This document shows, one piece after another, positions 2,841 through 22,700 of a DNA stretch of 64,000 bases. The stretch spans positions 1,824,001-1,888,000 of the forward strand of contig CAWIAD010000002.1 in assembly GCA_963833985.1 (NCBI GenBank), written 5' to 3'. Below the pieces are notes generated by a model. The model ran no database searches and had not been told where the DNA came from. It saw only the letters and a list, made by a program, of their open reading frames with translations. Positions within the stretch are counted from its first letter, which is position 1. Every line of letters starts with the position of its first letter. Made by a program: the position numbers and the translations under genes. This DNA is from an uncultured Planctomycetaceae bacterium. GTDB taxonomy: Bacteria > Planctomycetota > Planctomycetia > Isosphaerales > Isosphaeraceae.

Positions 2841-2854
2841 GGGCTGAATCAGCC

Positions 2855-3214
2855 CCGATACCGTTGAGATAGCGGTAAGTTGAGTGTGGGTAGAGGTTTG
2901 CCCCTCGTTCCCACGCCGAGCGTGGGAACAAGTCTCTCACAAATCTCTTAAATGATTCATATGCTTGTCCCTCGTTCCCACGCTCCGCGTGGGAATGCCG
3001 TCTGCGACGCTCCGCGTCGATCGGGGCCCGTGCGGAGGCTGGGAAATCCATGGGACGCAGCGTGTCCTCACCGGTGTTCCCACGCTCGGCGTGGGAACAA
3101 GTCTCTCACAAATTATTAATTATTACATATGTATATTCATGGTTTCCACGCTCTGCGTGGGAACAAGTCCGCCGCAAACCTCTTGCCTGGTCAGGGCTAT
3201 TTCAACGGTATTGG
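2855..3214. mobile_element. Non-autonomous MITE/REPIN-like element: four REP-like palindromes inside imperfect terminal inverted repeats
   Basis: GTTCCCACGC-nnn-GCGTGGGAAC hairpins at 2907-2929, 2974-2996, 3076-3098 and 3142-3164. The ends CCGATACCGTTGAGATAGC (2855-2873) and GCTATTTCAACGGTATTGG (3196-3214) are inverted repeats. Lies between convergent genes. Confidence 0.7.
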
Positions 3215-3234
3215 ATTTAGCTCCTGATGTCCTC

Positions 3235-6200
3235 CTATTCCGCTCCAAGCACGGCCGCCAGGGCCTTGAGGCCTTGAGGGTCCCGGAAGTAGCTCAGGTG
3301 ATCGCAGGCAACGGGATGGACCTGGAACGAGGCTTTCCATCCGTCCGGGACGTTCTCCATGCTGGCCACGGAGACGGCGATGTCGTTTTCCTGGCTGAAG
3401 AAGAATGCGTTTGCAACCTGGTGCAGGAGCTCGGGCGATCGCAGCCGCGCAAGCAGCCGCGTGAACAGAGCCCGGGCGCCTTCGGCCGGTTGCTGGGGCA
3501 CCTGCTTGATCATCGACGTGTTGCCTGCCAGCAGGACATAGGGAATGCCCGGGTCTGCGCCCTGCTTCAGGGCTTGCAAGACCCCGGACGTGGGCAGCAT
3601 CTCGTTCAGCGCGACGGTGGGGTTCTCGATCCAGGCAGCCAGGCCGCCAACGATCGACGCCGGCCAGGCGATGGCGGTGAGGTGGTTCAAACCGAGCGTC
3701 AGCGCAAGCGTGGCCCAGTCAAAGACCTGGGGCCAGGGTGAACCGCCGTTGGGCGTGCCCAGCATGACCAGCCGGCGCACGACATGGTTGCCCCCTTCTT
3801 GCTCGATGAACCAGCGCGCGACCAGACCGCCCATCGAGTGTGCGACGACGTCGACCACCTTGCCGTGCCCGGGCGCAGTCCCACGGCCTCCAGCCGCTCT
3901 TTCAGGAGCCGGCCATTCTCCTCGATGCGGGTATTCAGGTTCTCGTAGTCGAAGGTCAAGACCAGGTCATACAGGCTGGCCAGGGGCCAGTTGTCGGCGC
4001 TCCGGGCAAGCTGGAGGCCTGGCACCATGCTCGAGGTGTCGTCGATGATTCCGTGCACCAGGACCACGATGCGCCCGGCCTGTGCGACCCGGTTGCGGAC
4101 CTCGATATGATCGCGCACGGAGCTGACGGTTCCGTCAGCCGCCACGTCCGCGGCCGCCAGGATCGGGTACGGGAACTCCAGGTGAACCGCCTTGCTGACG
4201 ACCTTCTGGAAGAAGATCTTGATGGCTCCGCCGAGAGTCCGGCTATCGACAAAAGGATCAGGAAGCCGGTCCAGGGCAATGGTGGTCCGGCCTTCGGACC
4301 GGCTTTCCACGCGGCCCAGGGGCAGGAAGAACTCGCCGTCGTACGCAACCGGCAGGACATGCTCGTGCGGCAGCAGGGCGACGGGGACGTCCAGCCGCAA
4401 GGGTGCCTCGCGCGTCACGAGCGCGGGGTTCTTCACCTCGGAGAGTTCCAGCACGCTCAGCCCCACTTCAAGGCCCCGGCTGGGGGAAAGGAGCAGGGGC
4501 TGGCTCAGCTCCGGGTCGTCATAGAGCAGCCTCGGCAGCCGGACATGGCCCAGGTCGCGCGTGGCCAGGGAAGCAGTGGCCAGCCGGGCTGTGGCCTCGA
4601 GTGCGGGGTGCGGTTGCAGGATCACGCCGGGCGCCAGTTCGACCGCCGGCTGGCTGGCCATCGGAACGGCCCTGCCGTCGAGCGGGCGGACCGTGGTGAA
4701 CGCCAGCTCGGCGGCCTGCCAGTCGTCGATGGACGCGGGCGCGCCGGTGCCGAAGTCGCGGGTCTGCACCTTTCTCATAAGGTGCTCCAGCGAGCCGCCC
4801 CTGCCGCTTCCCCGCATGCCGCCGCCGGCTGCGCGGGCGCGGCATGTCCAGCCGCGGCTGCTCCAGCAGCCTGGGGTCGAACTCCTCCGTGCAAACGATC
4901 AGTTTGAGCAGGTCCTTGTATTCGATCACTCCCTGCTTCCAGAGCTCGTCCGGCACGTTCGCCGTGATCGGCTGGCCGTCGTTCGCCCAGGCCGTCTCGC
5001 CCGGCTCCAGCTTCACGCACCCGGACCGGATCAGCCCGGCGGATACCTGGAACCGCTGGGTCAGGTCCAGCAAGCCGCAGAAGAGCCTGCGATTGCTGGT
5101 GTTGGTCAGGCTCACCTGGAACCCGGGCTCGACCGTTTTGCCTTTCTTGACCTGGTATTCCAGGCGGATCTCGCTGCCGGCAACCTCCTTGCCGTCGACG
5201 AGCACGCTCAGCTTGATGGCGCCCGGCTCGATGGTGGTGGCGGGATTGGCAAGCCGAGCGGTCTGGTTCCAGCGGGCCATGTGCTCCAGCCGTTCCACGG
5301 TCTGTTTCGCCCCGGCCGCGTCCAGGCCGTCTATCTGTGCCACCAGCGGGCGGTCCTGGTCCGGCCGGGTGATGGTGTACTGACTGTCGCGCACGAGCAC
5401 GCGGAACTCCGCGGCGCTCGTCTCCTTGGCCTCGATGATGAAGAGCGACGGCTTGCCCTCCGGCGACGAGGTCGCGATGGCGTGGCGGACCAGCGCGCAG
5501 TCCGCGGCCTGTCCTTCCAGCACGACTCCCAGCGGTGGCACGGGCAGGCTGATGATCACGGCCTTGTACGTGTTTTGGGGATCGAGCGCCGTGGCTTGCT
5601 CGACGGCCAGCCGGCTTGTCGTGGGCAGGACCTCGGCCACGTGAGCCATCGCCAGCGCTCGGGACGGGTCGGCGAGGTCGGCGGCCGGCGCATCAAACGC
5701 GTACAGCGCCACCCGGGCGGCGTCGGCACCAGAAGGCGCCGGAATGCCGCTGGCCGCGCCGGCGCTCAGCACCCAGCGCGACCCCATGAGCTGCACCGGG
5801 ATTGCGGCCGGTGCCGGCCGGATGAGTCCGTCCAGGAACGTGGCGTCGAGGTCCTCGTTCCACGCGGTCTCGAGCTGGGCCGACTGGTCGCTCACCTGCG
5901 TGGCAAGCAGGGCCGACGTGCGTGTGAACAGGTCGCGATAGGTGGGAACGCCCGATGCGCTGCGGAGTGACTGGCCCAGGAAGAAGGAAAAGGCCCCGCG
6001 ATGCTTGCCGTCTCCCGAGTATTCCTTGGCCTCCTGGTCATCGCGGCAGGCTGCCATCAGCACGTGCCGTCCCGCGGGAGGCATGTCCCAGCCTCTCTTT
6101 TTGTTGCCGGTGCTGCGCGTGGCAGCCGCCTGGGCTTCATCCGCCGTGACCAGAAAGGTCTCGATGGGTCGCTGGCGGAGATCGGTGGGAGCGCGGCGGA

Positions 6201-6681
6201 CCACGGTATCGCTGCCGCGCGTGCCGGATCCGGAGTGGCAGCAATCAAGGATCACGGCGACGTGCGGCCCGTTTGCCGCCACCTGGCCGATCAGCTTGGC
6301 GAGCTCCTTGTCGGCCAGGTCCCAGCTTCCGGGCTCGCGGCTGTCGTAGAGCACGAGCGTCTCGTCGAGATGGTCCGGCTCGATCGTCCAGAACTGTTCG
6401 GGCGCCGGCTCCTGCGAGCCGTGGCCGCTGTAATACAGAAGAGCGACGTCGCCGCCCGCCGCCTGGCCCAGGTGCTCCTGGAACGCCGCGACCACCGCCT
6501 TGCGGGTGGCCTCGCCATTCTTCAGCGTCCTGGCCTCCAGCCGGACCATCTTGTCGCCAGCAACACGCTCCTGGAGATAGGCCGAGATGGCGTCGATGTC
6601 GTTGACGCAGCCCTGAAGCCTCGGTATCGGAGCGGGATAATCATCGATGCCAATCAGCAAGGCGAAGATGGTGCGGGCCAT
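3235..6681 (-). CDS. Caspase-like (peptidase C14) protease fused to a C-terminal alpha/beta-hydrolase (lipase-like); two frameshifts (~4835, ~3875)
   Basis: N-terminus ALLIGIDDY...GCVND with YYSGHG (His) and ILDCCHSG (Cys). C-terminus VLVHGI, AHSMGG, LGTPNGGS, ND.V and CDHLSYF. The three ORFs 4519-6681, 3699-4817 and 3235-3858 join across single indels. Confidence 0.85.
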
Positions 6682-6725
6682 GCGATGGTCTCCTGAAGAA
6701 CTGGCTGTCCGGTCACCGGGCGAAG

Positions 6726-7940
6726 TCAGGGTCCCTGCGAGGGGAGAGTGATGCTCCCATTCTGCTGGGTGTTCGTTCCGGCGTCGATGAAATCGACGGT
6801 CGTTTGATCAAAATGGTTGGCCACGTCGCCCGGGTTGGTGAAGCGCTGGCCGTCGAGGGCGAAGATGATGTCGCCGGCGTCGAGCGGCAGTTGCGACGCG
6901 GGCGAGCCGGGCAGGGGGGCTCTGGTGAGCTTGAGCCCGACCGTGCCGTCGCCGAATCGGATCGGGACGTAGACGACGCCCAGGTTCGCCGCCACCAGCG
7001 AGCCGGGCCCGCCCGCTGAGGGCTGCGGTCCCGGCTGCGGCCCGTTGCCGGCGTTCGCTAGCTGCCCGAACTGGTTCGTCCCATTCATCGCCATCGGGGC
7101 CGGGGCGTACCTGGGCGGGGTTCGACCGGTGTCAGACGCGGAAGGGAGAGTGATGTTGCCGCGCTGCACGGTGTTGGTGGCCGCGTTGATGAAATCGACG
7201 GTCGTTTGATCGAAATGGTTGGCGACGTCGCCCGGGTTGGTGAAGCGCTGGCCGTCGAGGGCGAGGATGATGTCGCCGGTATCCAGCGGCAGTTGCGATG
7301 CCGGCGAGCCGGGCAGGGGGGCTCTTGCGAGCCTGAGCCCGATGGTGCCGTCCCCAAGCTGTATGGGCACGTAAACGATGCCGAGGTTTCTTGCCGTCAT
7401 CGGCCTGGGGCCGCCTTGCGCGATTCCCGGTTGCGCGGACATCGGGCCCGCTCCCATGTTTTGCTGGCCCCACTGATTCACTCCATTCATCACCATCGGG
7501 GCGTTCGGCTGTCCTCCGGGAGTCGGTTGCAATGGGTTGGCGGGTGGTTGCGGTACGCCGTTCGCTGACGGCAGCATGATGTTGCCGCGATGCAGTGTGT
7601 TGGTCCGCGCAGCGACGAAGTCAACGGTGGTCTGATCGAAATGGCTGGCGACGTCGCCGGGGTTGGCGAAGCGCTGGCCGTCGAGGGCGAAGATGATGTC
7701 ACCGGCGTCGAGCGGCAGTTGCGACGCGGGCGAGCCGGGCAGGGGAGGCCGGGTCAACCTGAGACCCATCGTGCCGTCCTGAAAGCCGATTGGTATGTAA
7801 ACAACGCCCAGGTTGGCCGCCAGCAGGGGCTGCGGGGCCATGGGGGCGGGCACCGGCGCAGGGCCCTGGCCGAAAGCCGGCCAGCAGGGGCCGGCGGCGA
7901 TGCATGTTGCGACGAGTGCCATCCTGGTGAACTGGTTCAT
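6726..7940 (-). CDS. Secreted protein with three tandem PDZ-like repeats
   Basis: Signal-peptide-like N-terminus. Three ~85-aa copies of NLGVVY.PI...G..L...PLPGSPASQLPLDAGDIIFALDGQRF separated by P/G/Q/N-rich linkers. Confidence 0.75.
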   Translation of the reverse strand: MNQFTRMALVATCIAAGPCWPAFGQGPAPVPAPMAPQPLLAANLGVVYIPIGFQDGTMGLRLTRPPLPGSPASQLPLDAGDIIFALDGQRFANPGDVASHFDQTTVDFVAARTNTLHRGNIMLPSANGVPQPPANPLQPTPGGQPNAPMVMNGVNQWGQQNMGAGPMSAQPGIAQGGPRPMTARNLGIVYVPIQLGDGTIGLRLARAPLPGSPASQLPLDTGDIILALDGQRFTNPGDVANHFDQTTVDFINAATNTVQRGNITLPSASDTGRTPPRYAPAPMAMNGTNQFGQLANAGNGPQPGPQPSAGGPGSLVAANLGVVYVPIRFGDGTVGLKLTRAPLPGSPASQLPLDAGDIIFALDGQRFTNPGDVANHFDQTTVDFIDAGTNTQQNGSITLPSQGP

Positions 7941-8051
7941 GATCTGGTCCTTCGGGTGCGGGTGAAAAGCGACGATGGGAACCTGGTTGTGACTGCGTCA
8001 GCTCTGTCGCCAGAATCCTGTCCCGGTTCCTGCCGGCCTCCTCGGCCGCGT

Positions 8052-11000
8052 TCAACCAGGCTTTGGGGGGTAAGTTCGGACGATGCGAAACCCGACGGCG
8101 GTCCAGCGGCTGGTCGGCCGGGTGGCATCCCGGTAGGCGGCCCTCAGGTTCAAGGCGAGCTCACCGAAGGACCCGCCGCGGTAGACCCGGCTGTCCACGT
8201 CCAGGACTGTCCGGTCGGTGCGCTCGCTCCCGAGGTCATCGACGGGCGGGCCGTCTGTTGCCGGGTAGGTCGGTCTGCGATCGGAGCACCACTCGTTGAC
8301 GTTTCCGTGCATGTCGAAAAGCCCGAACGCATTCGGCTTCTTCTGGCCGCCCTCCTGAGCCTGCTGCCGCAGGTTCTTCGTGATGGAGTTATCGAGGAAC
8401 CATGCAAAATCCTTCATGAGCGCGCTGTCGGACCCGAAGGCCCAGGGCGTTTCCGCCCCCGCGCGGCAGGCGTATTCCCACTCGGCCTCGGTGGGGAGCC
8501 GGTATCCCGTGCGGGTCAGGTGGTCGGCGAATAGCTCCATGCCCTCCTTGATCCGGGGGATCGGGGGGTAACATTGCTCCTTCTCCGGCAGACCTTCCTG
8601 CTCACCGAGCCAGCGGCAGTACTGGGCGGCCTCGAACCAGGTCACCGACAGGATCGGCCCTGTCCGCCGGGGGCTATAGCTTTGCAGGTCGGCATATACA
8701 AAATTCGCCTTCGCTTCTTGCGCGGCTGGATCGTCCAGGAACCTGAGGTAGTCGGCAACGGTCACCTCGCGCGTGCCGATGGCGAAGGAACGAGGGATGC
8801 GCCGGTGGTGTTGCCGTTCGTTCGGGTTCCGGCCCAGCTCGTTTTCCTCGTCGGGTGAACCCATGACGAAGACGCCGGGGTTCTTGACGATGACGAAGGT
8901 CTGGCCTTGCTTGTTGACGTACCACGCCTGCCTCGGGCCGGGCGGCTTGCCGGCCAGCGACTCATCCACGGCCACTCCGTCAAAGCAGAGCAGGTTCGGC
9001 AGCAGCCAGGCCAGCGCGGAGTGGAACCCCGGCTCCGGGTCGTGAGCGTAGGCGTCGAGCAGCTTCGCCGTCAGCGTGCGGTTCATCTCACCGGTCCGTA
9101 GCTCGTAGGGAAACTCGCCCAGAGCCAGCACGATGGCCGCGCGGATCGATGGCTCCTGCTCCTCGAACAGGTGACTGGCAAGGAGCTTGAAATCCACGCC
9201 CAGGCGCCCCATGCGTTCGATCAGGTACGTGCGCAGGCGCGGTTCCGGGCTCTGTCTCAGGGCGGGCCAGAGCCGGTCAGTCTGGCCCAGCATGGCGAGA
9301 GTGATCAGGGCATTGGCTTGCCGGCCCGCCAGTTCATCTTTCTGCTTGTAGATGCTTTTCAGCGGGGCCTTCTTGCCCAGCTCGTTCTTCATGGACCGGA
9401 CGGCCGCCCCGGGGTGATCCCTGGCCTTCGCGAACACGATGGGGAACTGGCGGGCGTCGGCCTGCTTGAGCAAATCGAAGGCGACCTCGTCGGTCATCGA
9501 CCGCACGGCTTCCTCGGGGTTGGCACGGGCCCTGGAGAAGAGGATCCGGAATTGCTGGGTGTCGGCATTCTTCAGCAAGGTGAGGATCTTGACGATATCG
9601 TCGGCGGCGTAATCGTTCAGGATCGTGGCCGCGACCTCCCGTTCGTGCGGTTGTCCCTCGTTGAACTTCACCTCCAGTGAGGGGATGAGCTGCTTCTTGA
9701 CGAGGCGGAACGCGTCGGTCCAGCCGCCGAGCTGAAGGGCGTTGACCGCGAGGACGTCGGCGACGACGCGCTCGGCCACCTGCCCCCAGCGCGTGTCTTG
9801 ATCGCTGAAGGCGGCAACCACCGCGGCATGGCGCAGGCGGAGCTCCGGGACGCTCTTGGTGTTCTTCACCGTCTGCCACAAGCGCTCGACAGTCTCTTGC
9901 GACAGGTAGGGACGCAGGTAATCCCGGACGAGCAGCAGCTCTTCGGGGTCGGAGTCGGCTGTGAGCACCTGCTGGAGCAAGAAATCGACCTCCGCGGGGT
10001 CCCTGTCCAGCAGGGCCAGGGCCGCCCGGCCTCTTTCCTTGGTGCTCGCTCCCTCTTTCGACCGCACGCCCCGCAGCCGGTCCATCGCTTCATCGCTCTC
10101 GCGCACGGACTTGAGGATGTCGGGCACGGCTTGAGGGTCGGCCTCGAGTAATTCCTCGGCCTGGGCGAGGGAGCGCACCTTCTTCTCGCTGGTGAGCTTG
10201 AGCAGGCTGTCGCTGAGATTGTTCCCCTTCGTACGGGCGTCGGACCATTCCATCGCCGCGATGCTCGCCACCAGCACCATGATCGCGGCCGCGGCACCCA
10301 GCAAGTAGGTCCCTTGCCGGAGACGGGTGTTGGTCTGTTTCTGCTTGAGATTGGCCTCCTCCAGGCGCTGGTTCGCCTCGAGCTGCTGCTCGTTGGCCGT
10401 CTGCTGTTCCGCCAGCCGGTGCTCGGCTTCCTGCCGGGCCTGGGCCTCTGCCTTCAGCCGCCCTTCCTCGGCCTCGTGCAATCGGCGGGCCTCCTCGGCT
10501 TCCTGGGTCTTGACGCGTTCGTCCTCATCCCGGCTTGCCATCACCAGGCGCTCTTCCACGCCGGTCCAGCCGCGCATTCCGGAAGCGCCTTCGAGGACCG
10601 TGGCCAGGTCCGCGCGGTCGAGACAGGGGCCGGTCTTGCCGTCAACCCAGTCGGGCACGCGGTTTTCCAGCAGGCGGCGCGCACGCTGACCGGGAGCGAC
10701 GGAGATCCGAAACCGTTGCTGAACCAGCGGCGCAAGCAGGTCGTGAGCCAGCCGTGTGGAGCGGGTGGTGGTCCCGGCCACCGGCTCGGCCTCCACGATG
10801 AGATAGTGGTCCTTACACTTGCCGAGCAGGCCGTCGAGCACCCCGGCCTGGTGGGCATAGCGCGCGTGGAGTGCCTCGCAGGTCTGCTGGGCGGCCGTGC
10901 CGAGATCGGTGGTATGGTACAGCAGCAAGTCAAGCGCCAGCCCTGAGTGCTCGACCTCGGGATTCCAGCGGCCGATGGCCTTCAGCCCCTCGTCGAGCAC

Positions 11001-12557
11001 GTCCTTGAGAAGGTAGCCCTCCGCCTTGAGAGATTCGTAGAGCGCGCGGTCGAAACGCGGCTGGCCCGGGTTTGCCTGGCGGGCCCTTTCCCACATCTTG
11101 GCGAGCAGGACCTGGAGCGTGGACGACAGCGCCGATCCGGCGTCGGCCAGCAAATCCTCGGCAATCACTGCGGGCAAGCCGTCCTCGATCTCCAGCCGGT
11201 ACTGCCGCTGGAGCCGGCCGGGCCGTGACGGGCCCTGGATCGCGCTGATGATGCCGCGCCGGTCGAGCGGCTTCAGGAACATCGGCGAGCGGGGAAGCCT
11301 CGCCTCGGCCAGCCGGCGGTCCAGCTCTGCCAGCCACTCCTTGCGAAACCCCAGCACCAGCTTGCCGCGCGGACGAAGCTCGCGATTGCCCAGCGTGGCC
11401 GCCAGCGCCGCCATGAACTCGTCAAGCTCGCGCGGCCGATCCGGGTCGGGCCGTGTGAACACCTCTTCCACCTGGTCCAGGAAGACCACCACGGGCCGGC
11501 CCGAGCTTGCCTCCGCGGACCGCCACGCCGCGTTCAGGGCGGTCAACTCGTCCGCGAGCCCGAGCGCATCGCCCAGCGAGCCCAGCAGGCCCTTCTTTTC
11601 ATCACGCCGGCGATAGCGAACCAGGCTGCCGCCGGTCTCCAGGCGCGGCACGAGCCCGGCGTCCAGCAGCGACGACTTGCCGACGCCCGATGTCCCGTAC
11701 AGCAGCAAGATCGGCGGCCCGGCCGGGTCAATGATCTCCTCGTACAATTCCCGGATCTGGTAGCCGCGACCGAAGAAGACCTCGGCATGCTCGGCCGTGA
11801 ACCAGTTCAGATGCCGGAACGGGCTCTCGGGCAGATCGCGCTCGGGCAGGCGTGGGAGGCCGAATTCCGGATGACCGGCCGCATCCGGCAAGCTCCAGCG
11901 CTCGACCAGCTCGGTCCCGGGCCGGAATTCCCACGGGAACCCGTGGTCGTCGGCCGGATCTGAGTTCGCCGTTTCCGCGGTCGTGCCGAAGTCGCGCTGC
12001 CCGTAATAGGCCTCGGGCACGGTGTCGTGGGCCGCCAGGACTCGTCCCCTTGCCCTTTCGAACGCGGCGCGGAGCGGGAATCCGGCGGCCAGCTCAGTAT
12101 AAAAGGCCACGGCGAAGGCGCGTGCCTTGCCATCGTCGATCGCGCGCGCCGTGGCGATCACGGCGGCGACGCCCGCCTGGAGCAGCCGCGCCACCTGGCC
12201 GCGGGTCGAGCAGCCGTTGAGAAAGACCAGTTGCAAACCGCCGCAGTGGCCCAGGAACGTTGCCAGCCCGTCCGCATGCGCCGGGGCTGCTCCCGCGTTC
12301 GATTCCAGCAGCAACCGGCCGCTGTCGGCATGCCCGGCGTAGTGCAGAATGGTGACCTGGTCACGGTTCAGGGTGAAGACGTCGAAGATCTGGTCCAGGG
12401 TCGCGTTGGAAAGCACTTCCAGGCGGCAGAGTCCGTCATGCTGCGCATCCTTGAGAATGCCTTGAAGCTGTCGCAGTTCCTCGGGCAAGTCCCTCAGGTA
12501 ACGCCGGCCCTCCTGCTCATTCGCAAAAGCCAGAACAACGATCGGCAGCTCTGCCAT
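8052..12557 (-). CDS. CHAT protease - nSTAND-type NTPase - coiled coil - TM helix - helical repeats - FGE/SUMF1 domain protein
   Basis: LHYAGH and LVFLNGCST (CHAT His/Cys dyad); GTSGVGKSSLL (Walker A); VFLDQVEE (Walker B); TM helix YLLGAAAAIMVLVASIAA; RLPTEAEWEYACRAG and PNAFGLFDMHGNVNEW (FGE-sulfatase fold). Probable start MAELPIVV at 12557. Confidence 0.88.
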   Translation of the reverse strand: MAELPIVVLAFANEQEGRRYLRDLPEELRQLQGILKDAQHDGLCRLEVLSNATLDQIFDVFTLNRDQVTILHYAGHADSGRLLLESNAGAAPAHADGLATFLGHCGGLQLVFLNGCSTRGQVARLLQAGVAAVIATARAIDDGKARAFAVAFYTELAAGFPLRAAFERARGRVLAAHDTVPEAYYGQRDFGTTAETANSDPADDHGFPWEFRPGTELVERWSLPDAAGHPEFGLPRLPERDLPESPFRHLNWFTAEHAEVFFGRGYQIRELYEEIIDPAGPPILLLYGTSGVGKSSLLDAGLVPRLETGGSLVRYRRRDEKKGLLGSLGDALGLADELTALNAAWRSAEASSGRPVVVFLDQVEEVFTRPDPDRPRELDEFMAALAATLGNRELRPRGKLVLGFRKEWLAELDRRLAEARLPRSPMFLKPLDRRGIISAIQGPSRPGRLQRQYRLEIEDGLPAVIAEDLLADAGSALSSTLQVLLAKMWERARQANPGQPRFDRALYESLKAEGYLLKDVLDEGLKAIGRWNPEVEHSGLALDLLLYHTTDLGTAAQQTCEALHARYAHQAGVLDGLLGKCKDHYLIVEAEPVAGTTTRSTRLAHDLLAPLVQQRFRISVAPGQRARRLLENRVPDWVDGKTGPCLDRADLATVLEGASGMRGWTGVEERLVMASRDEDERVKTQEAEEARRLHEAEEGRLKAEAQARQEAEHRLAEQQTANEQQLEANQRLEEANLKQKQTNTRLRQGTYLLGAAAAIMVLVASIAAMEWSDARTKGNNLSDSLLKLTSEKKVRSLAQAEELLEADPQAVPDILKSVRESDEAMDRLRGVRSKEGASTKERGRAALALLDRDPAEVDFLLQQVLTADSDPEELLLVRDYLRPYLSQETVERLWQTVKNTKSVPELRLRHAAVVAAFSDQDTRWGQVAERVVADVLAVNALQLGGWTDAFRLVKKQLIPSLEVKFNEGQPHEREVAATILNDYAADDIVKILTLLKNADTQQFRILFSRARANPEEAVRSMTDEVAFDLLKQADARQFPIVFAKARDHPGAAVRSMKNELGKKAPLKSIYKQKDELAGRQANALITLAMLGQTDRLWPALRQSPEPRLRTYLIERMGRLGVDFKLLASHLFEEQEPSIRAAIVLALGEFPYELRTGEMNRTLTAKLLDAYAHDPEPGFHSALAWLLPNLLCFDGVAVDESLAGKPPGPRQAWYVNKQGQTFVIVKNPGVFVMGSPDEENELGRNPNERQHHRRIPRSFAIGTREVTVADYLRFLDDPAAQEAKANFVYADLQSYSPRRTGPILSVTWFEAAQYCRWLGEQEGLPEKEQCYPPIPRIKEGMELFADHLTRTGYRLPTEAEWEYACRAGAETPWAFGSDSALMKDFAWFLDNSITKNLRQQAQEGGQKKPNAFGLFDMHGNVNEWCSDRRPTYPATDGPPVDDLGSERTDRTVLDVDSRVYRGGSFGELALNLRAAYRDATRPTSRWTAVGFRIVRTYPPKPG

Positions 12558-12738
12558 ATTCCTGACCCCCGAGCCAGCCGGCCGGGAGCCCACGGCGGCA
12601 CGCTGGCGCATGGCAACATGAGAACGGGCGGCGACCGATGCGCCGCTGCCCCGCACGGACTCCGGCCGCCGTCGGGTTCACGCCGGTTCTCCAGGCCGTG
12701 CGTGACCACCGGCCGCCCTCGAAGCCCCTGCGCTGGCT

Positions 12739-12912
12739 TCACTGCTCAATGATCTCGATGTTCTCCTGAACCTCGCTGATGTTCTCCTGAACCTCGCTGA
12801 ACTGTTCGATAAACTCTTGTCCCTGGGGTGTATTGATCACCTCGACGTTCTCGGTTACCTGGGTGATCTGCTCTCTCACTTCGATGATCTCTTCTTCAAA
12901 GAATTCCGGCAT
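12739..12912 (-). CDS. Small acidic heptad-repeat protein (57 aa), absent from the ORF track
   Basis: Manual translation gives MPEFFEEEIIEVREQITQVTENVEVINTPQGQEFIEQFSEVQENISEVQENIEIIEQ*. GGAG lies 9 nt upstream of the ATG, third codon positions are GC-biased, and there is an in-frame 21-bp tandem duplication at ~12758-12799. Confidence 0.7.
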   Translation of the reverse strand: MPEFFEEEIIEVREQITQVTENVEVINTPQGQEFIEQFSEVQENISEVQENIEIIEQ

Positions 12913-13174
12913 GACGATATGCTCCGGCTCTCAAGTGGATGGCGGCGCGGAAAGTAGCCCTCCAAGGAATATCAGCGACTCCCTTCCCGGGCGAAATTCC
13001 TGCCGGAAGAATCTCGTGGAAGTGTACGTGCGTGATGGTTCGGCCTCTCCTTTTCACGGTTGCGCTGAAGGCGTCTTGCCCGTTCCGATGCGGGTGGTGG
13101 CTTGACTGACCTGGCTGCCGTAGCATGGTCGGGCCGTACGTCGTGAGCATCCATCTCCGTCTGCGCGAGTGAAC

Positions 13175-13870
13175 ATGATCAGGGTACCGATCAAGTCGAG
13201 GGAAGGCGTCTACCGCGTCATGCGGACGAGGGTGCCGCGCACCCGAACGTTTTTTCTGTACCGCCAGGCCGAGGCCAACGACAAAGCCTGGCTCCAGGCT
13301 CTTTACGCCGCCATCTGCAACCTGGTGCAAGCCCATCCCGAAGCAAGGTCGCATCGCGCCGTGGCGCTGATGGCGGAAGTTTCTGCCCAAGGATCCCGCG
13401 CAGCGCGAACACTCAAATTTTCGTTCTCCGATGCGAAGCAGCGCTCGCTCTTCGAACAGGTGCTCTGGACCTTCTTCTTCGACCAGCCCGACACCTGGGA
13501 AACCTCGTGGCCGGAACCGGGCCAGGACGACGCGGAATACGTCGCGGTACGCGCCGGCCGGATTGCGCAACATCCCGCGGATCCGCGTCAGATGGCCCCT
13601 GCCGCCCGTGCCGCCAAAGCGCGCAGCCGCGGGCTGGACGCGGCTCCGGCGGCTACGACAGCCGTGGCGTCCGACGATGAGCTGAAAATCGGGGATATCG
13701 TCAAGGTTGTCGAGGGCCGGTACACCGGCCTCATTGGCCAGGTGGTAGCCATCCCGGTCGTGGGAGGGTTCGAGCGCTATACGGTCCGGCTGCCCGGCGA
13801 CGACCAGTATTATGACGTGCCGAATTTTCCCGCCTTCGCGCTCGAGAAGGTTTCCGCACCGGCGCATTGA
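13175..13870 (+). CDS. Hypothetical protein with C-terminal KOW/SH3-like motif
   Basis: LKIGDIVKVVEGRYTGLIGQVV resembles a KOW motif. It follows an Ala-rich linker; the N-terminal domain is not recognised. Confidence 0.6.
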   Translation: MIRVPIKSREGVYRVMRTRVPRTRTFFLYRQAEANDKAWLQALYAAICNLVQAHPEARSHRAVALMAEVSAQGSRAARTLKFSFSDAKQRSLFEQVLWTFFFDQPDTWETSWPEPGQDDAEYVAVRAGRIAQHPADPRQMAPAARAAKARSRGLDAAPAATTAVASDDELKIGDIVKVVEGRYTGLIGQVVAIPVVGGFERYTVRLPGDDQYYDVPNFPAFALEKVSAPAH

Positions 13871-13877
13871 CCGCGCA

Positions 13878-15419
13878 TCAAGGCAAGATCCGCTGCCCGA
13901 CGGCCGTGTTCAGCTTGAGCATGCTGCGGCGGTGCTGGATCTTCAGCTCGTCAAGCTTCGCGAGCTGGTTATCGTCGTCATCCGCGATGAGCCGTTGCAG
14001 GCGCTCCAGTAGCATGAGCATCTGAAGATCCGGCGTCCGTCCCCCTTTCTCGAACCGCTTCATGAGCGGCTTGATCACCAGGCCCTCGTCGGAGAGGGTC
14101 TCCGGCCTGACGCGCTCGACGGCCCTGAGCGTGAACTCGTGCTGACGGTAAGCCCGCCGCACCTCGGACTCGACAACGTTTTCCAGCCAGAGAAGCTGGG
14201 TTCGCGCCTGCGCGGCCATCGCCCCCGCCTTGGCGATGTTGCCTTGCTGCCGGTTGTAAATGGGCAGCGGGACCGTCACGCCCAGCGCCCAGGCGAGCGT
14301 ATTCTGGGGAGCGACGTTCGGAATGCCGGTGTAGAAGGTGTAGGGCTGGTACATGAGCAGGGCGTCGTCGAACCGGTTGGCGCGCGCCGCGGCGATATCG
14401 GCCTGGGCGCGTGCCACGTTGAGACGCAGGGTCACAAGGTCCGGGCGCTGAGCGAGCGCCAGCCGGATGAGCTCATCCTCCGGTGGCAGCGGGGGCTCGT
14501 CCCGGCGAGTGAAGTGCACCCGGCCGTAGAGGCCCCGTTCCTTGAGCTCCCTGGGCGGCAGGTTCAACTGGAGGGCGAGCGTGCTCATCGCCTCCTCGTA
14601 GACCTCGCTCGCGTCTTCACGATCGATCGCCGAGAAGAGACTGGTGTTCTCCCCGCGCCCCTTGAGCAGATCAGGGTTTTTCCGCTCTTCAAACTCGACA
14701 TTCCGCTGAGCCAGCAAGGCGTCCACGTAGGCGGTGTACAGGTTATCGATCGCGAGCCGGACGAGGTCGCGGTACTTCGCCTCGACGGCGCGCTTGTTCC
14801 ACCACGCCGATTTCATGCGTGCCTGGCGCTTGTGAGACAGATCCAGCGGGTGCACCAGGTTGAAGTCGTACTGATTGGGTCCTCCGGACGTCTGACTCGT
14901 GTATTTTCCATAGGGGACGCCCTGGGTGTCGACATAGGCGATGGGATTGGTGCGCAACCCCGCCGTGATCAGGTCGGCCTCGGCCTGGGAGATGTCGCAG
15001 CGACTCTGCGCCAGCTCAAGGCTGTTGTGCAACAAGATGTCGATGGCCAGGTCGAGCGTGATGCCTTCGGGCTTGCCGAAGACCGGCTTGAGCGCCGGCA
15101 GGCCGGGACGAGGACGCGCGGGATCGGGATCGAGCGGCAAGGGCAGATCGCGGGGCGTCCGGACCCGGGGAATCTTCAGGTTGGCGGGATCGGATGGGCC
15201 AAAATCGACGGGCGGAAGGACCCCGAACCCCGGCTGCGTCCGTCCCACCGACGGACCCGGCTGGCCGCCGACCAGACCTTGCGGGCCAGATTGACGGGGG
15301 TTGACCAGCGACTCGCGCGCTGCCTGCGCGCGGGCCGAACCCGATCCCGCAAGCAGGACGGCCAGAAGCGCTGTTGCCGCCAGTGCCCGCTCTTCCATGG
15401 CAGTGAGACCGCATCCCAT
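13878..15419 (-). CDS. TolC-family outer membrane efflux protein
   Basis: ITLDLAIDILLHNS, ADLITAGLRTNP, ALAQRPDL and VPLPIYNRQQGNIAKA. Signal-like N-terminus with AAGGAGG upstream; start uncertain (15398-15470). Confidence 0.8.
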   Translation of the reverse strand: MGCGLTAMEERALAATALLAVLLAGSGSARAQAARESLVNPRQSGPQGLVGGQPGPSVGRTQPGFGVLPPVDFGPSDPANLKIPRVRTPRDLPLPLDPDPARPRPGLPALKPVFGKPEGITLDLAIDILLHNSLELAQSRCDISQAEADLITAGLRTNPIAYVDTQGVPYGKYTSQTSGGPNQYDFNLVHPLDLSHKRQARMKSAWWNKRAVEAKYRDLVRLAIDNLYTAYVDALLAQRNVEFEERKNPDLLKGRGENTSLFSAIDREDASEVYEEAMSTLALQLNLPPRELKERGLYGRVHFTRRDEPPLPPEDELIRLALAQRPDLVTLRLNVARAQADIAAARANRFDDALLMYQPYTFYTGIPNVAPQNTLAWALGVTVPLPIYNRQQGNIAKAGAMAAQARTQLLWLENVVESEVRRAYRQHEFTLRAVERVRPETLSDEGLVIKPLMKRFEKGGRTPDLQMLMLLERLQRLIADDDDNQLAKLDELKIQHRRSMLKLNTAVGQRILP

Positions 15420-15553
15420 GCACCGCGCCGAGTCCCTCCTCCTTGAACCTTGACTCGGCCGTGCTTTCACCCATTCTTTCGGTCTTGTGGCCTCCGCAAA
15501 TCCAGAAAAGCCGTTCCTTCCGCTGGCACCGGCTCACTTCGCCCCGTGCGATT

Positions 15554-18500
15554 TCACTCCACGGTCATGATCCCGTTCATGACCATCCAGTGGCCCGGGA
15601 AGGTGCAGAGGTACGGATACCGGCCCGTAGCCGCCGGAGCGCGGAAGGAGATCGTGAAGTCACTTCCCGGGTTCACGATGTCCATGTAAACGAGGATGTC
15701 GTCGCTGCGGGGGATGTAGTGACGGGCCGCGGCGTCGGGCTCGGCAATGATCTTGTTCACGAGGTCGCCCACTTTTTCGAGCGTTCCCGGACGCGCGAGG
15801 GCCCAGTTGTGCGGCACGACGTCAGGGTTCGAGAAGGTCAGCTTGATCGCCTCGCCGGCATGCACTCGAAACGAGGTCGGCAGGAAGCTCAGGTTCGGGC
15901 CGGCCGCAAGATGAATCTCGCGTGCGCCGCGGATGGACGCGCGCCACGGATTGGGAACCTTCGGAGCGCTCGAGCGCTGCCATGTCGGCGAGCATGGGAT
16001 GCGCGGCGATGATCTTGACGGTGGGCCGATAGCCGGGGTACCCGGTGAACGCCGGTGCCAGCCGGTGGACCGTGGCATACAGGTCATGGGGGTCGCCGGA
16101 ATCCACCCGCAGGTGGAGATGAAGCTGGCTGACCGGCTGGAGCTCGGGAATCTCAAGGAAGAGAGTCTTGCCGTCGCCCAGGAGATGTGCCGAGGCGACG
16201 GTGAGCGGATCGTGGCCGGGCAGGCCCGGATGGCGGGGTGAGAGCTCGGGAGATCCGTATCCGCTGCTGTAGTGATAATTCCAGGCCTGCACGAAATGGT
16301 TGCGCGGCTGCTCGGCAACCGCGCGATCGAGCGGCTGGCTGAAGGTCACAAGCACACCGTTCTCGACGGCGTGCCAGGCGAGCGGAAGCTGCGCGGGGCT
16401 ACCCGTATAACGCACCCGCTGAAAGCAGCCGTCCTGGCTGGTGTACGTTCCCCAGCCGGCCATGCCCGTGACGTAAAGCTGTCCATCCGCCGGGTTGAAG
16501 CGTCCGCGGTGCACGCCCGAATCAAAATCGCCGGGTAAGGGGACGACGGCCCCTTGAGGTTGCCCGTCGACCTGGTCGCGCAGCACCAGAAAATGGGTTC
16601 CCGCGCCGAAGGAGAAGTGGATGAGCTGGCCCTTGAGCGGGCCCCAGCGGTCGGAGGTCACCTCCACCTGGGCGGAGCTCGAATTGTCCAGCCCGCGCGG
16701 CAGGTAGACCAGCGGCAGGTCCGGCGCGCGGCCGTGGAGCGGTCCGCCGTAGCCGTAGTGCCCTCCCGGCTTGACCTCGCAGATCATCGACGCGGGCACC
16801 CAGTCCCCCTCGGAATTGGGCACGGTCAGGACGCCGCCGGAGCACAGGCCCAGGCCGTCGGGGTTCCGGAAGCCCGTGGCCAGAACGTCGACTGATCTGC
16901 CGTCCGGTGCAATCTTCAGCAGCCCTTGCTTTCCGGATACCGTGTAGAAGTTGCCGGCAGCGTCGTTCTGAAGGCCGCAGATGAAGTCGTGGCCGGCGGG
17001 AGAGGTCTCGTAGGCGTTGCTCACGCATTCGTAGGCATCGGCCTCGCCGTCGCCGTTGAGGTCGCGCAGCCGCGTGATCTGGTCGCGGCCCAGCACATGG
17101 ACGGCGCCATCGGCCACCACCAGCCCGAGCGCCTGGTGCAGCCCCGAGGCGAACCTCCGCCAGCGCACTGCGCTGAGGCTGGAATCAAGACCCTCCACGT
17201 GCCAGACGTCGCCCTGCATGGTGCAGAGCATGGCCGAGCCATCAGGTAGAAAATCATGGTCGCCGAAGAAGAGGGGGACTTTCCAAGGGTTCTCGAAAGG
17301 AGGCCCGATCGTGTCGATCGCGTAGGGCTGGCCCTGGCCGAGCGTGCCACGGGTGGTCAGCACCTGCGGCCATTGCGCGGGGCCTCCACGCGTCAGCCTT
17401 GCGAGCGAGTCATCGGTGGCGGGAACGACCCGCCGCGCGAACTTGCCGTCCTCCACCCAGGCCGAGTCGAGCCGCTCCTCGCCGCCGATCCGGTACGCGA
17501 AGACCACTCGCTTGCCGTGCCGGAAGAAACCATGGTAGACGAAGGGCTGCGTGGGCCGGCTGCCGGGCGGGCGGGACAATGGGGTGCCGCTCAGGATCAG
17601 GCCGTCCATGAAACCATGCCGGGTTGCCGAGAACTTGACGAAGCCGCCCGACCAGAGGGCCTCGTAACAAAGCGTCTCGGGGTTGAAGCAGGCGCTCAGC
17701 TCGCCATGGTCGCCCAGGCGAACGCAGACGCCTTTCGGCACGACCACACCGGCCCCTCGGAAAACGCCACTGAGCACCGAGCCGAGCTCCGTATCATTCC
17801 AGCGCGGGTCGGCCCAGCTCTGCTCGTTCTGGTTGCCCCAGTGGCCATGTGAACCGCCGTCGAGCCCGGGATAGGGGGGCAAGAGCATCGGTAGGGGAGA
17901 CTGCTTGCGGAAGTACTCGGCCTCCTTCGCGTAGTAGTCATAGATCCGCTCGCGATTGACCGGCTGCTGCCAGTTCGGCCGGGCTTCGGGGTGTAGGGGA
18001 GCCCGGTCAAAGGGGAAGGTTGCAGCCGCGTGCGGCTGGTGGGCCATGGCCGTGACAGCCGCACTGCCGGGCTTGCCCAGGTCCATCAAGAAGCGGACCA
18101 GGTCGCGGCGATCGCGGGCCGTCATGGTGGCCGCGATCCCCTCCGGCATCAGGCTGCCGACGGTACGCAGCTCTTCGATGGATGCGCGCGGAACCTGCAA
18201 ACCGGTGCCGGTGGTGGCCTCGGTGAGCGTGATCGCGCGCGATCCTGCGCACGTGGATAGCCCTGGATGACCTTGCCATCGCTGGTCGCCAGCGCGATGG
18301 CCTCGTATCCCGTCTTGACCGTACGGCGCGGCCAGAGCACCGACTCGACAATTTGCTCGGGGGTCAGGCAGACGCCCGCCGTGGTCAGCTCGGGTCCCAC
18401 GATCCCTCCCGCGGCTCCCACCTTGTGGCACGACGTGCAACTGAAGCGCGGGTCCGAGAAGACCTCGGCCCCGTGGCGAGGATCGCCCGCGCTCCGGGCC

Positions 18501-19570
18501 TCGGCCACCAGGGCGGCCACCAGGGCGGCTTCCCTGGCCGGCAAGTCCGCCGCGCGGGCGGGCCGCGGAGCCACCGGCGTGCGCGGTACGGGTTTCGGGC
18601 CGGGAGGCTTGCCCTCGAGCTGGGGGAGCAGCCAGTCCAGGCCGTCCAGGTTGTCGCGCAGCCGGGCCTCGGCGTCGTCCTGCGTGTGGCCGAGGATGCC
18701 GATCGGGCCGCGGTAGCCGCTGTCGCGGATGATCCGCAGCAGCTCCAGGTCGTGCTCGCCCTGGCCCAGCGGCAAGATCTTGCGGCCCACCCTGTCGCCC
18801 CCCCTGTCCATGCCGTTGAGATTGAGCGCCCGCAGGTACGGCTTCATGGACTGGAGCAAGGCAGGGAACCGGTCGATATGCTCGTGGCCGTGGTGCAGGT
18901 TGTAGACCATTCCGACGTTCTTCACACCCGCGGTCTCGAGCCGTTTGATGATCGCGATCTGGTTCTCCGGCTCGCCGAACCAGCCGCCGTGGTTATAGAG
19001 CGCCAGCGTGCAACCGATTTTCTCGGCCTCGACTGCCAGGGGACGCAGCTTCTCCGCGGCGACGCTGATCCTACGCTCCTGCTCGGCGCCGCTGGCTCGG
19101 TCGCCGCCCAGGTCCAGCAAGACCCAGAGCTGGGCCTTGATGGCATGGCGACGCAGCAGGTCGAGGATGATCCGCGATTCGCGGTTCAGCTCGCCGGGAG
19201 CCACCCAGAAGGCGTCCAGCGCGATGCCATGCCGCTTGAGCGCCTCGACCTCGGCGTCGAAGCTGGGAATGTGCTCGGCGCGCCAGTCGTAAGCGAAGTG
19301 CTTGAAGCCAAGGCGCTGAAGCATGGCCGCACGCTTCTCGGGCCCGCGCTGCTTCGCATCGAACGGCACGATGCACCAGGCGATCAGGTTGTCGCGCGCG
19401 AAGAGCGATTGAGCCGGTTTCTCGTCCCGCGCACCGGCTGGCTGATCCGGACCGGTCACGGCGCAGCGCCCCACCAGGCCCGTGCCCGGCACGAGCGCCA
19501 GGAACAGAGCACCGCGGCCGACGAGATCAACGAGGTCGCGCCGGGTTTTTCCGATGGAAAAGCAGATCAT
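15554..19570 (-). CDS. Large multidomain protein: sugar-isomerase-like TIM barrel + c-type heme (PVC-type) + beta-propeller-like region + azurin/plastocyanin domain; two frameshifts (~18235, ~15968)
   Basis: AWCIVPFD...LYNHGGWFGEP...YNLHHGH; CTSCH heme motif; SLMPEG; GFRNPDG; C-terminal HNWAL...CTFPGHWMVM type-1 copper ligands. Confidence 0.8.
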
Positions 19571-19702
19571 GCAGCAGTCCTTCAAGGCCAGCGCCGCCGC
19601 AGCTTGCTCGAGGACGGACTCCGCGAGCACCAGCGTCGAGATCGCTTCAAGCTATCTTGCCTGGTGCGAGATCGCAACCGATCGACTGCCGCGCCGCGGC
19701 GC

Positions 19703-22700
19703 TCAGTCATCGCTGACGAGGTCGAATTCGTCGGGACTCCAGAAACCGGTCATCTGCTGCACAAGGCGGCGCCGCTCGTCGCCCTGGGAGGCCAGCAGGC
19801 GGGCGACGAGCCGGCGCTGTCTCGTCCAGCCCTGGCGCCGCTGACTGTCCGGCGCTGCCGGCAGCGCAGCCATAAGGGCGGCCGCGCGTCCGGGATCGAC
19901 GACCGCGGGACCGCCGAACATCGCATCGGGAAGGTAGCCCGTGCCCCCGGCAACAAGACGAGGCAGCCGGACAAACACCGGTTCAAGCAAGGCATGCGCG
20001 ATCGCTGGTTCATACGGCAGGATGAGCATGGCGATCACGGCATCGGTCCCGAGCCGGCCGACCTCCTCGCGCTCGTCCTCGTACCTCGGCCCGCGCAGGG
20101 CCAGGGCACGCCAGAGATATTCCGAAACGCGCCCCGGATCGATCCGCTCCACCGCTTCCAGCAGGGTCGCGGCCGTCGAGGCTGCGCACCGCGTGTTGAG
20201 GTAGCTCTCCTTCTTCGCCGCGATGGCCTCCAGTGCCCGATAAGCCTCATCCACCAAACCCGTTGCCGCGGCCTTATCGGAGGAGCTCGAAGACCAGCGC
20301 CATCTGGCCGAGCGTATATGCCCGCGTGTACAGATCGCCGATCCTGGCAGCGATGGCGCGTGCCCGGGGCAGGTCTTTTGGTGCCATCGCGTAGCAGACG
20401 CGGAGTGCGTAGAAGTCACGCATGATCGGCCGCTTGAGCATTTGCCAGACGCGCTCGGCTTCCGCCGGCTGGGTGGATGCCAGCCGCTGGGCGATGTTGC
20501 CGTGATGACGGTCGAATTCCTGCTCGTCGGTCAACCCCTCGATCAGCCCTAGCGCCGCGGGCACATCGACGCGCACCAGTTCATCGGCAAAGGCACCCCG
20601 GCCAAAGCCGCCCACGGCCGACGTCGCCAGTTCCCCGGCAATTCTCTGCCCGTCGCGAAAGATCTTCGTCGCCCTTTCCTGATCGCCCAGATCGAGCAGC
20701 CGGCTAGCAATCTGGCCCTGGAAAATAAGCCGCAGCGCTGGGTCCTTGATGCCCTGGGTGTGAACCAGGGCCTGCATCAGGAGCGACCGCTTCTTGTCGC
20801 GCTCGGTCGCAGGCAAGAGATCGCTGGCCTTACGGTAGCCGTCGGTACGGCCGATCGGGTCGCCGAGCGACTCGACGAGCGTCAGCGCCTCGTCGGGTGT
20901 CTCCTTCATCAGGCGCCGCGCTGCGCCCACTTTCACACCGTCGCGCATCATCGGCTCGGCGAACTTCGCCTTCTCGGCAATCTCCATCGCCAGGGCCGGG
21001 TCGATGCGCGCCAGCGTCTGGAGAGTCTGGAATTCGGTCACTCCGCAAGGGCCCGTGCGCGCCCGCTCGATGTCCGGCTCCAGCACCCTGAGCGCCAGCC
21101 GGCGCCGTTCTTCCGCGGGGAAGCCGGCCGGTGAATCATGAGGCCCTGGAGCGGCCGGACCAGCCGCACGCGACAGCACCAGCTCGACCGAGTCAGCCGC
21201 CGGCTGAAGCAGGCTTCCCTGAAAACGGTAACCTTCCGCCTCGGCGCAGATCATCATCGTGCCGGCGGGAGGAAGGTTCACCTGGAATAAGCCATTCTCA
21301 GCGGATCTCGTGATGGGACGTTCGGGCTGCTCGCTCACGAGGCGAATCCTGGCACCGGCGACCGGCCGGCCATCGCCATCCGCGACACGTCCCGTGATCG
21401 GTTTCGGCCGGTCGACCACGAGATCGGGAAACACGACCTGGGTGCCCGGCCGAGGCCGCATCCAGTCCGACCAGTCCAGCGACAGGCCCGGCGCCGCGGC
21501 TCTTACCTTGTAGCGCTGGTCGATGCGGAACTGGCGGGGCGTTTCGAACCTGCCGTCGCTGCCGGTATGAGGGCTGCCGGCTGCGGCAGCGTTCAAAAGG
21601 ACCGGGTTGGAATACTCCTGCTCCTGTGCCCAGAACTCGAGCTCAGCCCCCGCGACCGGCTGTCCCGTGCGGTTCACCACCCGAGCGGCCAGGGAGACCA
21701 GGTTCGCCGAGCGAATCGTCAAGGTCACAGGCGTATCGAGCGCGGGGGAAACTTCGAACGGCTTATCCGTGCGAGCGTCCGCGGTGCTGGCCTCGAGCCG
21801 GAACCCCGCGCGCCTGGGGTCGAGCACTGCGAACACGAATGTTCCGTCGGGCGCGGTCGACGTGGTGAAATTCTCGCCTTCAATTCCTTGCTGCCAGACG
21901 AGGGTTCCGTCAACGCGGGCGCCGGCGACCGGAGTGCCCGAGGCGTCGACGACCTTACCTTGCAAGGCATCGCCTCGGGCCAGTTCGATCGGGGGAATCT
22001 CGAACTCCGAGACATTCGCGGGGATCTGTTCCTCGCGTCCGGGCGGCCGGGTCGGGAAGAAGGGGCGCGGAGTCAGCCAGTCAAAGAGGCTCGTGCCAAC
22101 GGTCCCTGGCAAGACGTAATCCTCGAAGCGCCCGGCGTCATCGCTGTAGACGACATTCGTCCGGTACTGGCTGCCGACCAGCACACCCGCTTCCGCGATG
22201 GGCCTGTTGGAGCCGCGCTCGCGCACCTGGCCTCGCACCCGCACGCCGCGCTTCAGAGTGATCTCCAGGTGGTTCTCCCGGTTCGCGGCAATGGGGGTGA
22301 ATGCCGGCTGAACGGGGCGATACGGTGACCGGGGCGCCACGCCAACCTGAAAGAGCATCAGGCCCTCGGCCAGGGCGGGGACAACAAAGCGGCCCTGGTC
22401 ATCGGTGCGCGTGCTGGCCAGTCCCGACACCGACTTGCCGTTGAACTGCGTGCCCAGGTAAATGGGAATGCCGCGCACCACCGCGGGATCATCCGCGCGG
22501 ACGCGTCCCACCACCCGACCCACTGGCAAGAGCGTGATGGCCTTGTCGGACGGGGGTTGCCACTGAATTTCTTGCACCCCCAGATCGGCCGTGCTGACCG
22601 TGAGGATGGGCGCCTCGCCCGGCTGGACGTAAGAGATCTCGGCCTTGCCTTGCTCATCGGTCCGCGCAGCGAGTTGCTCGGCCAGCGCGTCCGGTACGCT

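Follow-up and report, generated by a model that had tools for sequence, protein, structure and literature searches.

The window, by which we mean the whole stretch of 64,000 nt of planctomycete DNA that was analyzed, carries on its reverse strand a short gene for a hyperacidic protein of 57 aa. The gene contains a perfect tandem repeat, is preceded by a Shine-Dalgarno motif and a conserved leader with a predicted promoter region, and is followed by a GC-rich hairpin (Table 1). Behind the hairpin, and outside the peptide unit, lies the gene for a large CHAT-STAND protein. Genes for a three-PDZ protein, a caspase and a 372-aa protein are found further along the same strand.

Table 1. Features of the peptide locus, with positions counted in the window
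Feature	Position	Strand	Basis or remark
P0001, coding sequence of the 57-aa hyperacidic protein	12739..12912, stop codon within	(-)	translation, 13 homologues, dN/dS, charge
Shine-Dalgarno GGAG	12922..12925 (read 12925-12922), 9 nt 5' of ATG	(-)	sequence; invariant in 20/20 aligned family loci
Perfect tandem repeat of a 21-bp unit (2.1 copies), the source of both SEVQENI heptads	12757..12800	.	Tandem Repeats Finder, 100% matches, score 88
5' leader and predicted promoter region, homologous to the family upstream cassette	12913..13045	(-)	upstream-region alignments
GC-rich hairpin (stem-loop 12651-12626) and T-rich tail, 87 nt after the peptide stop	12612..12651	(-)	loci alignment
P0002, CHAT-nSTAND1-coiled coil-TM-HEAT-FGE-sulfatase protein, neighbor outside the peptide unit	8052..12557	(-)	Pfam
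Three-PDZ protein	6726-7940	(-)	downstream of the STAND gene
Peptidase_C14 caspase	4519-6681	(-)	PADLOC 'caspase', E = 7.9e-38; 6 kb downstream of the peptide
372-aa protein	within 3699-7940	(-)	G024 homologue matches DUF7379

The translation bears out what the original prediction had read from this open reading frame (ORF), namely its composition, a ribosome-binding site in front of the ATG, and 7-residue units arranged around a TPQG turn. It comprises 16 Glu, 9 Ile, 8 Gln, 6 Val, 4 Phe, 4 Asn, 3 Thr, 2 Pro, 2 Ser and one each of Met, Arg and Gly, and lacks Ala, Leu, Asp, Lys, Cys, His, Trp and Tyr; its net charge is -15.5, with Glu accounting for 28% of the residues. The lack of Ala, Leu, Asp and Lys, to which the prediction had drawn attention, holds for the window peptide but not for its homologues, where K13, A32 and other such residues occur, and is peculiar to the window copy. 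The two SEVQENI heptads are identical in the window peptide, while in the homologues the two heptads are unlike each other. A length of 57 aa is by itself within chance, because 113 ORFs of at least 40 aa overlap positions 9000-22000 of the window. The ORF exceeds chance by its difference in GC content between third and second codon positions (GC1 0.58, GC2 0.16 and GC3 0.72 in the peptide frame, in a genome of 65% GC), its conserved homologues, its dN/dS ratios and its heptad pattern.

Thirteen close homologues of about 55-57 aa (67-80% identity) retain the frame and the TPQG turn. Four were found in the protein database (P0003-P0006, 56-96 aa, 71-80% identity), the two longer ones being upstream mis-starts on short contigs where the sequence runs off the end. 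A metagenome scan added nine further short-form loci (67-79% identity), which encode 56-57 aa except for the longer L028. The conserved homologues on which the original prediction hinged do, in other words, exist. About 19 columns, T-P-Q-G among them, are invariant in nine aligned short-form sequences. Six comparisons of the window copy with homologues in the range L027-L034, which exclude L028 and L032 with their other lengths as well as L026, where an indel puts the rows out of register, gave pS values of 0.53-0.63, pN values of 0.15-0.18 and dN/dS ratios of 0.13-0.19. Judged by this conservation, the 57-aa ORF is a genuine conserved gene, and its substitution pattern shows purifying selection. 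An Rfam E-value scan of 12300-13400 returned two matches only, both at chance level (E 0.29 and 0.42) and far under the gathering scores. In L028 (3683-3919) the stop codon TGA has become TCA, and the peptide is extended to 78 aa by a non-acidic tail.

The peptide also has much longer relatives. These long forms were reached via genome searches, in which weak but specific matches begin at the initiator Met of far longer hyperacidic proteins in the genomes of relatives; with the 57-aa sequence as query, none of the longer database proteins was retrieved at E <= 0.1. The window peptide is the shortest member of the family, other members being hyperacidic repeat proteins of 112-479 aa. Short and long forms have the first ~45 residues in common, and in the long forms these are followed by 70-430 residues of repeats rich in Glu, Val, Pro, Ile and Thr, in which Lys and Arg are nearly lacking. 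More diverged short forms (P0026, P0039) exist as well. In 14 short and long sequences, residues 1-37 can be aligned with hardly a gap, the long forms being 30-44% identical to the window copy. Five long forms for which charge was computed contain 0-3 Lys and Arg residues and have net charges of -32 to -80. The C-terminus of the 277-aa long form of genome G024 also matches the second half of the peptide, and P0017, a database protein of 179 aa, consists of a ~55-residue helix-turn-helix unit repeated three times in tandem, which suggests that the ~55-residue unit is itself a repeat module.

A profile of the N-terminal part matched in 18 of 121 genomes of the order, a set identical to that of the family search, distributed over 12 of 53 genera, with a single copy in each genome except G032, which has two. 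These carrier genomes measure 8.8-16.5 Mb each. The same profile found no family member in G004 and G013, two near-complete genomes from the genus of the window genome. The window genome itself holds the short form only: composition-corrected tblastn detected no long-form paralogue there, and an uncorrected run yielded nothing beyond compositional noise. At E <= 0.001, 30 cluster representatives were retrieved out of 1.84 billion, and the sources name family members only as 'hypothetical protein'. Pfam, NCBIfam, PHROGs and PADLOC assigned no family to short or long forms, and no relatives of the peptide family were found in viral contigs (IMG/VR) or in phage and plasmid collections. Full-text literature searches on Glu-rich or acidic Gemmata proteins and on small acidic DNA-mimic hairpins returned nothing relevant, which cannot prove absence from print. 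As far as sequence searches reach, the peptide belongs to a small unnamed hyperacidic family restricted to this planctomycete family. The analysis thus recognizes, in a planctomycete genome of 10 Mb, a small protein missing from the annotation, and it defines a family that had no name before, with a striking modular pattern in which a constant head is combined with an acidic part of varying length and with conserved expression signals. A RiPP precursor, with a conserved leader and a repeated core, was considered and ruled out because the neighbors of the family are not conserved.

About 130 nt upstream of the ATG are conserved across 19 loci from many genera, and this cassette contains an AT-rich block, an extended -10-like element with the consensus TGGTAATAT, a C/U-rich leader and the invariant GGAG. 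The window has CTGATATT at 12975-12968 on the reverse strand, a degenerate version of the family consensus, and a consensus promoter scan of 12400-13300 reported no site. RNAalifold on 20 loci found no consensus pairs in the leader, neither a structured leader nor a hairpin sequestering the Shine-Dalgarno motif. The peptide gene is divergent from a conserved gene for a 233-aa protein (13169-13870, forward strand). The 233-aa frame is better conserved than an overlapping 323-aa ORF of the reverse strand, from which we infer that the peptide gene heads its transcription unit. This 323-aa ORF (12896-13867), which overlaps the start of the peptide gene, is probably a shadow of the conserved 233-aa gene; the product of the latter has a weak KOW motif under the Pfam cut-off.

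On the 3' side, the hairpin has a 9-bp consensus stem in 7/7 aligned loci, the long-form locus of G024, which has no STAND gene, being one of them, and one of its pairs covaries (UA/GC/CG). Its folding energy of -17.9 kcal/mol is no lower than that of shuffled sequences (z = -0.19), its U-tract is weak, and a terminator scan of the region did not flag 12612-12651; hairpin stability was accordingly dropped as evidence in itself. Based on the conserved stem, the hairpin is likely the gene's own terminator or an attenuator. Given the unremarkable energy and the silent terminator scan, termination at this site is likely but may be partial, and the degenerate promoter element, the weak U-tract and the z-score together make read-through into the STAND gene quite possible. 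Taken together with the upstream cassette, the alignments suggest that the peptide gene likely has its own promoter and its own terminator.

A short ORF with many Ile, Val and Glu codons, a hairpin and a large gene follow one another here, an order that could also be that of a leader peptide (uORF), with translation of the ORF governing a terminator or antiterminator in front of the large STAND gene. We consider this very improbable. The hairpin begins 87 nt beyond the stop codon, it is the protein sequence that is under selection, the homologues are up to 479 aa long and stand ahead of unrelated genes, and in G024 the hairpin is kept with no STAND gene downstream. With its gap to the hairpin, its low dN/dS and its long homologues before unrelated genes, the ORF does not fit the pattern of an attenuation leader peptide.

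The extreme charge of the family raises another possibility, namely that the peptide is a bulk polyanion with no specific partner, which would buffer Ca, Mg or Fe or act as a hydrophilin-like stress protectant expressed from a strong stress promoter. The highly negative long forms, the number of repeats, which varies freely between 112 and 479 aa, an unstructured leader with an invariant Shine-Dalgarno motif, and the patchy distribution of an accessory gene would all be in line with such a role. So would the AF2 model of a long form, which is disordered throughout, the N-terminus included (pLDDT 54, pTM 0.10). Conservation of the TPQG turn and of the ~45 N-terminal residues is, however, one of sequence and not merely of composition, which argues for a specific contact, and the short form has no tail at all. 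We therefore regard a purely bulk role as unlikely.

Regarding the fold, the original prediction had left a choice between a coiled-coil and a cross-beta hairpin, and the results favor the former. Hydrophobic residues occupy 6/6 heptad a/d positions in the first half of the window peptide and 7/7 in the second, a pattern matched by 56 and 15 of 10,000 shuffles, respectively. The maximum of the hydrophobic moment falls at 105-110 degrees, and values at 170-180 degrees are low. AF2, given a five-sequence alignment, places helices at residues 3-22, 24-27 and 29-56 with moderate confidence (mean pLDDT 68.4, pTM 0.40). A coiled-coil hairpin of two amphipathic helices fits both the periodicity and the AF2 model, and a cross-beta structure does not. 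In sequence and model, the peptide shows the hydrophobic a/d heptads, the two helices and the turn that characterize the structural class of coiled-coil hairpins. Position 19 is Glu in several homologues, so that the heptad pattern of helix 1 is only partly kept among them. Co-folding of two peptide copies scored 0.02, and a search of the ESM Atlas with the peptide gave no usable match.

Structure searches point in the same direction at a low level. Foldseek returned nothing significant, its top matches being helical hairpins, the Get1 coiled coil among them, and a PDB profile search gave only marginal matches, to designed antiparallel coiled coils. With the cytosolic hairpin of Get1 and the designed sc-apCC proteins, the peptide would share two amphipathic helices of ~20-25 residues, a tight turn and hydrophobic a/d positions. 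It differs from them in that its sequence is unrelated (E 0.003-0.07 over 16 residues) and in that it has no basic residues for salt bridges at e/g positions. A stable fold of the peptide would probably need neutralization of its charge.

The cross-beta reading deserves separate discussion, since it would make the peptide an amyloid signaling element of the NLR type, similar to BASS or HET-s motifs. BASS motifs are beta-prone stretches of ~25 aa with a high content of Q, N, G, V and I; one copy forms the C-terminus of an effector, and another forms the N-terminus of the NLR next to it (10.1101/2020.01.06.895854). With BASS1-10 and the fungal HET-s/HRAM motifs, the peptide has in common that it is short, with many Q, N, V and I residues, that it contains two pseudo-repeats on either side of a Pro/Gly turn, and that an NLR-like (STAND) gene is adjacent. 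Such motifs are depleted in K, P and L. The peptide shows the enrichment in Q, N, V and I and has neither K nor L, yet it contains a single Gly and its Glu content is high, and its likeness in composition is only partial. The bacterial and fungal motifs form the C-terminus of an effector protein (e.g. Bell), whereas the peptide is 57 aa as a whole and has no Pfam domain. The motif recurs at the N-terminus of the NLR in those systems, whereas the STAND protein begins directly with CHAT and has no counterpart: BLASTP of P0001 against P0002 gave a best E of 5.2, not at the STAND N-terminus, and revealed no shared motif. In contrast to the beta-prone BASS motifs, the periodicity of the peptide is helical, its AF2 model is all-helical, and it carries 28% Glu with a net charge far below zero. 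An amyloid role is scarcely credible on these grounds, and a tempting link from a small ORF to NLR-type amyloid signaling, which the original prediction had entertained, is removed as unsupported.

Alignment with orthologues (MAELPIVV versus MEMAELPIIV) indicates ATG 12557 as the likely start of the neighboring STAND protein, 181 nt past the peptide stop. In the best-aligned segments of its first ~700 residues it has 74-90% aa identity to orthologues, and its C-terminal part is diverged or different in L030, L033 and G006. One TM segment is predicted at about residues 795-817 (GTG numbering), after a long coiled coil and before the HEAT repeats; the coiled coil and the hydrophobic segment suggest that the STAND sensor may sit across the membrane from the protease and the NTPase. 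Conflict systems of the nSTAND1/FGE-sulfatase (CLec) kind, with effector-associated adaptor domains, were reportedly treated by Kaur et al. in 2020. The neighbor resembles these systems in its architecture of effector, nSTAND1 and C-terminal FGE/CLec sensor, an arrangement described for putative conflict sensors (Dore et al. 2024, PMC10907252). The peptide does not resemble their adaptors, which are domains common to the STAND protein and an effector encoded separately. In the neighbor, CHAT is part of the STAND protein itself, with which the peptide has nothing in common. Searches for an effector-associated adaptor found no similarity of the peptide to P0002 and no Pfam or PADLOC match.

Whether the peptide and the STAND protein work together can be judged from the neighborhoods of the homologues. 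A STAND orthologue lies 3' of the peptide in seven of the nine short-form metagenome loci, and the other two have downstream flanks of only 124 nt (L031) and 507 nt (L032). The distance is 181-438 nt in other loci, and L032, which has the peptide and the upstream genes, shows no STAND start within its 507 nt. All nine short-form loci share the 233-aa upstream gene except L033, where the upstream flank is too small; most share a TolC-like upstream gene as well, and several are near-identical. The pairing is thus confined to loci with the same upstream genes, which probably reflects a single inheritance, and the adjacency is probably not functional; linkage limited to a shared neighborhood is weak evidence of function.

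Among the long forms the association was not found. No CHAT-nSTAND1 relative was detected within 8-10 kb of any of the 18 long-form loci (17 genomes) at E <= 1e-5, and L049 matched only the HEAT/FGE part of the STAND protein. The caspase and the 372-aa protein were neighbors at just one of the 18 loci, that of G024, where their genes lie directly upstream of the long form. Pfam was run on 55 of the 141 listed ORFs at five loci and found no CHAT, STAND or caspase; the families it did find were those of transposases, reverse transcriptases and housekeeping enzymes. Nor is there conservation of neighbors from one long-form locus to another. The expectation of the original prediction that homologues would lie near STAND or protease genes therefore holds for the STAND gene at the short-form loci and for the caspase at G024, and fails for CHAT-nSTAND1 at the long-form loci.

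The converse situation is found in G006, a genome of the same genus. It has a STAND orthologue (82% identity over 698 aa), and the peptide was not found in its assembly, which is 91% complete. The DNA upstream of this orthologue is unrelated to the window, and homology to L030 starts 64 nt before the STAND start, 3' of the hairpin. AT-rich DNA lies 5' of STAND at about 4360-8036 of this locus (L043, G006:C36); the peptide unit may have been replaced there by an insertion or a rearrangement. In L030, a second CHAT-STAND paralogue is located at 2055-4180, ~6 kb upstream of the peptide; its nucleotide sequence is ~70% identical to that of the STAND orthologue in G006.

The original prediction had placed the peptide at the head of a STAND operon. 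A functional unit of this kind is not supported by the comparison of loci, given the conserved hairpin between the genes, the peptide's own upstream cassette, the long-form loci with no CHAT-nSTAND1 and the STAND gene of G006 that has no peptide beside it. This bears on the view that the peptide serves the CHAT-STAND protein as a functional partner (inhibitor, bait or guardee, adaptor or substrate), co-transcribed with it by read-through. The two genes lie on the same strand with 181 nt between them, across a hairpin with a weak U-tract. Since the two unpaired short-form loci are limited by contig ends, the pairing appears to have been kept throughout the group. A lone conserved basic residue, R/K13, stands amid the acidic sequence, and the caspase 6 kb downstream has an orthologue adjoining the G024 long form. 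On the other side are the probable single inheritance of every paired locus, CHAT-nSTAND1 at 0/18 and caspase at 1/18 long-form loci, the peptide-less STAND orthologue of G006, the missing STAND start in L032 and the lack of a motif common to both proteins. An adaptor would, moreover, be unnecessary where the CHAT effector is fused to STAND. We consider a partnership with the STAND protein quite unlikely.

We posit instead that the locus holds a conserved gene, likely served by a promoter and a terminator of its own. Its product of 57 residues, with a charge of about -15, is predicted to form an antiparallel two-helix coiled-coil hairpin; as a polyanion it would bind a basic partner or act as its decoy, rather than serve the CHAT-STAND protein as an amyloid adaptor, a reading to which we assign roughly even odds. 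According to this proposal, the peptide gene would be transcribed largely on its own. The conserved N-terminal part may serve as a specific docking module for the basic partner, and the acidic remainder, which would be the second helix in the window copy and a disordered tail of variable length elsewhere, may supply the charge. The helices would form only when the charge is neutralized by the basic protein, by cations or by low pH, and the peptide would then work as a polyanionic binder, decoy or mimic. Such a role is suggested by charge and conservation.

Acidic proteins of such kinds are known: Ocr, ArdA and phi29 p56 are nucleic-acid mimics, and PopZ is a disordered acidic scaffold. The likeness to these would lie in small size or acidic tails, a very low pI, and electrostatic mimicry or scaffolding. 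Searches of Pfam, NCBIfam, PHROGs and PADLOC gave no match to known DNA-mimic or anti-restriction families, and no viral, phage or plasmid relatives were found. Should a basic partner come to light, the family could point to a regulator of nucleoid or RNA biology that is specific to this lineage of unusual bacteria. A bolder version, which we offer as a long shot, is that the family pairs a ~45-residue docking module with a polyanion of freely evolving length, found in this lineage only and expressed from a self-contained promoter-leader-terminator cassette, conserved to an unusual degree, that relocates between genomes. Its members would be nucleic-acid or polyanion mimics titrating a basic DNA- or RNA-binding protein, and the minimal hairpin of the window may have become a bait that the adjacent CHAT-STAND sensor monitors.

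Some further features were observed at the long-form loci. Between about -130 and -60 before the ATG, long-form cassettes contain the palindrome TCGAATTTTCGA and an inverted GCATC...GATGC pair (e.g. L014, 10628-10700), which together could be a candidate operator. After the long-form gene of G010 (L013, 1619-8755) come two reverse-transcriptase genes, of which one encodes a maturase domain of the group II intron type, as well as an IS110 transposase. In L014, an IS200-like transposase lies 2 kb from the long-form gene.
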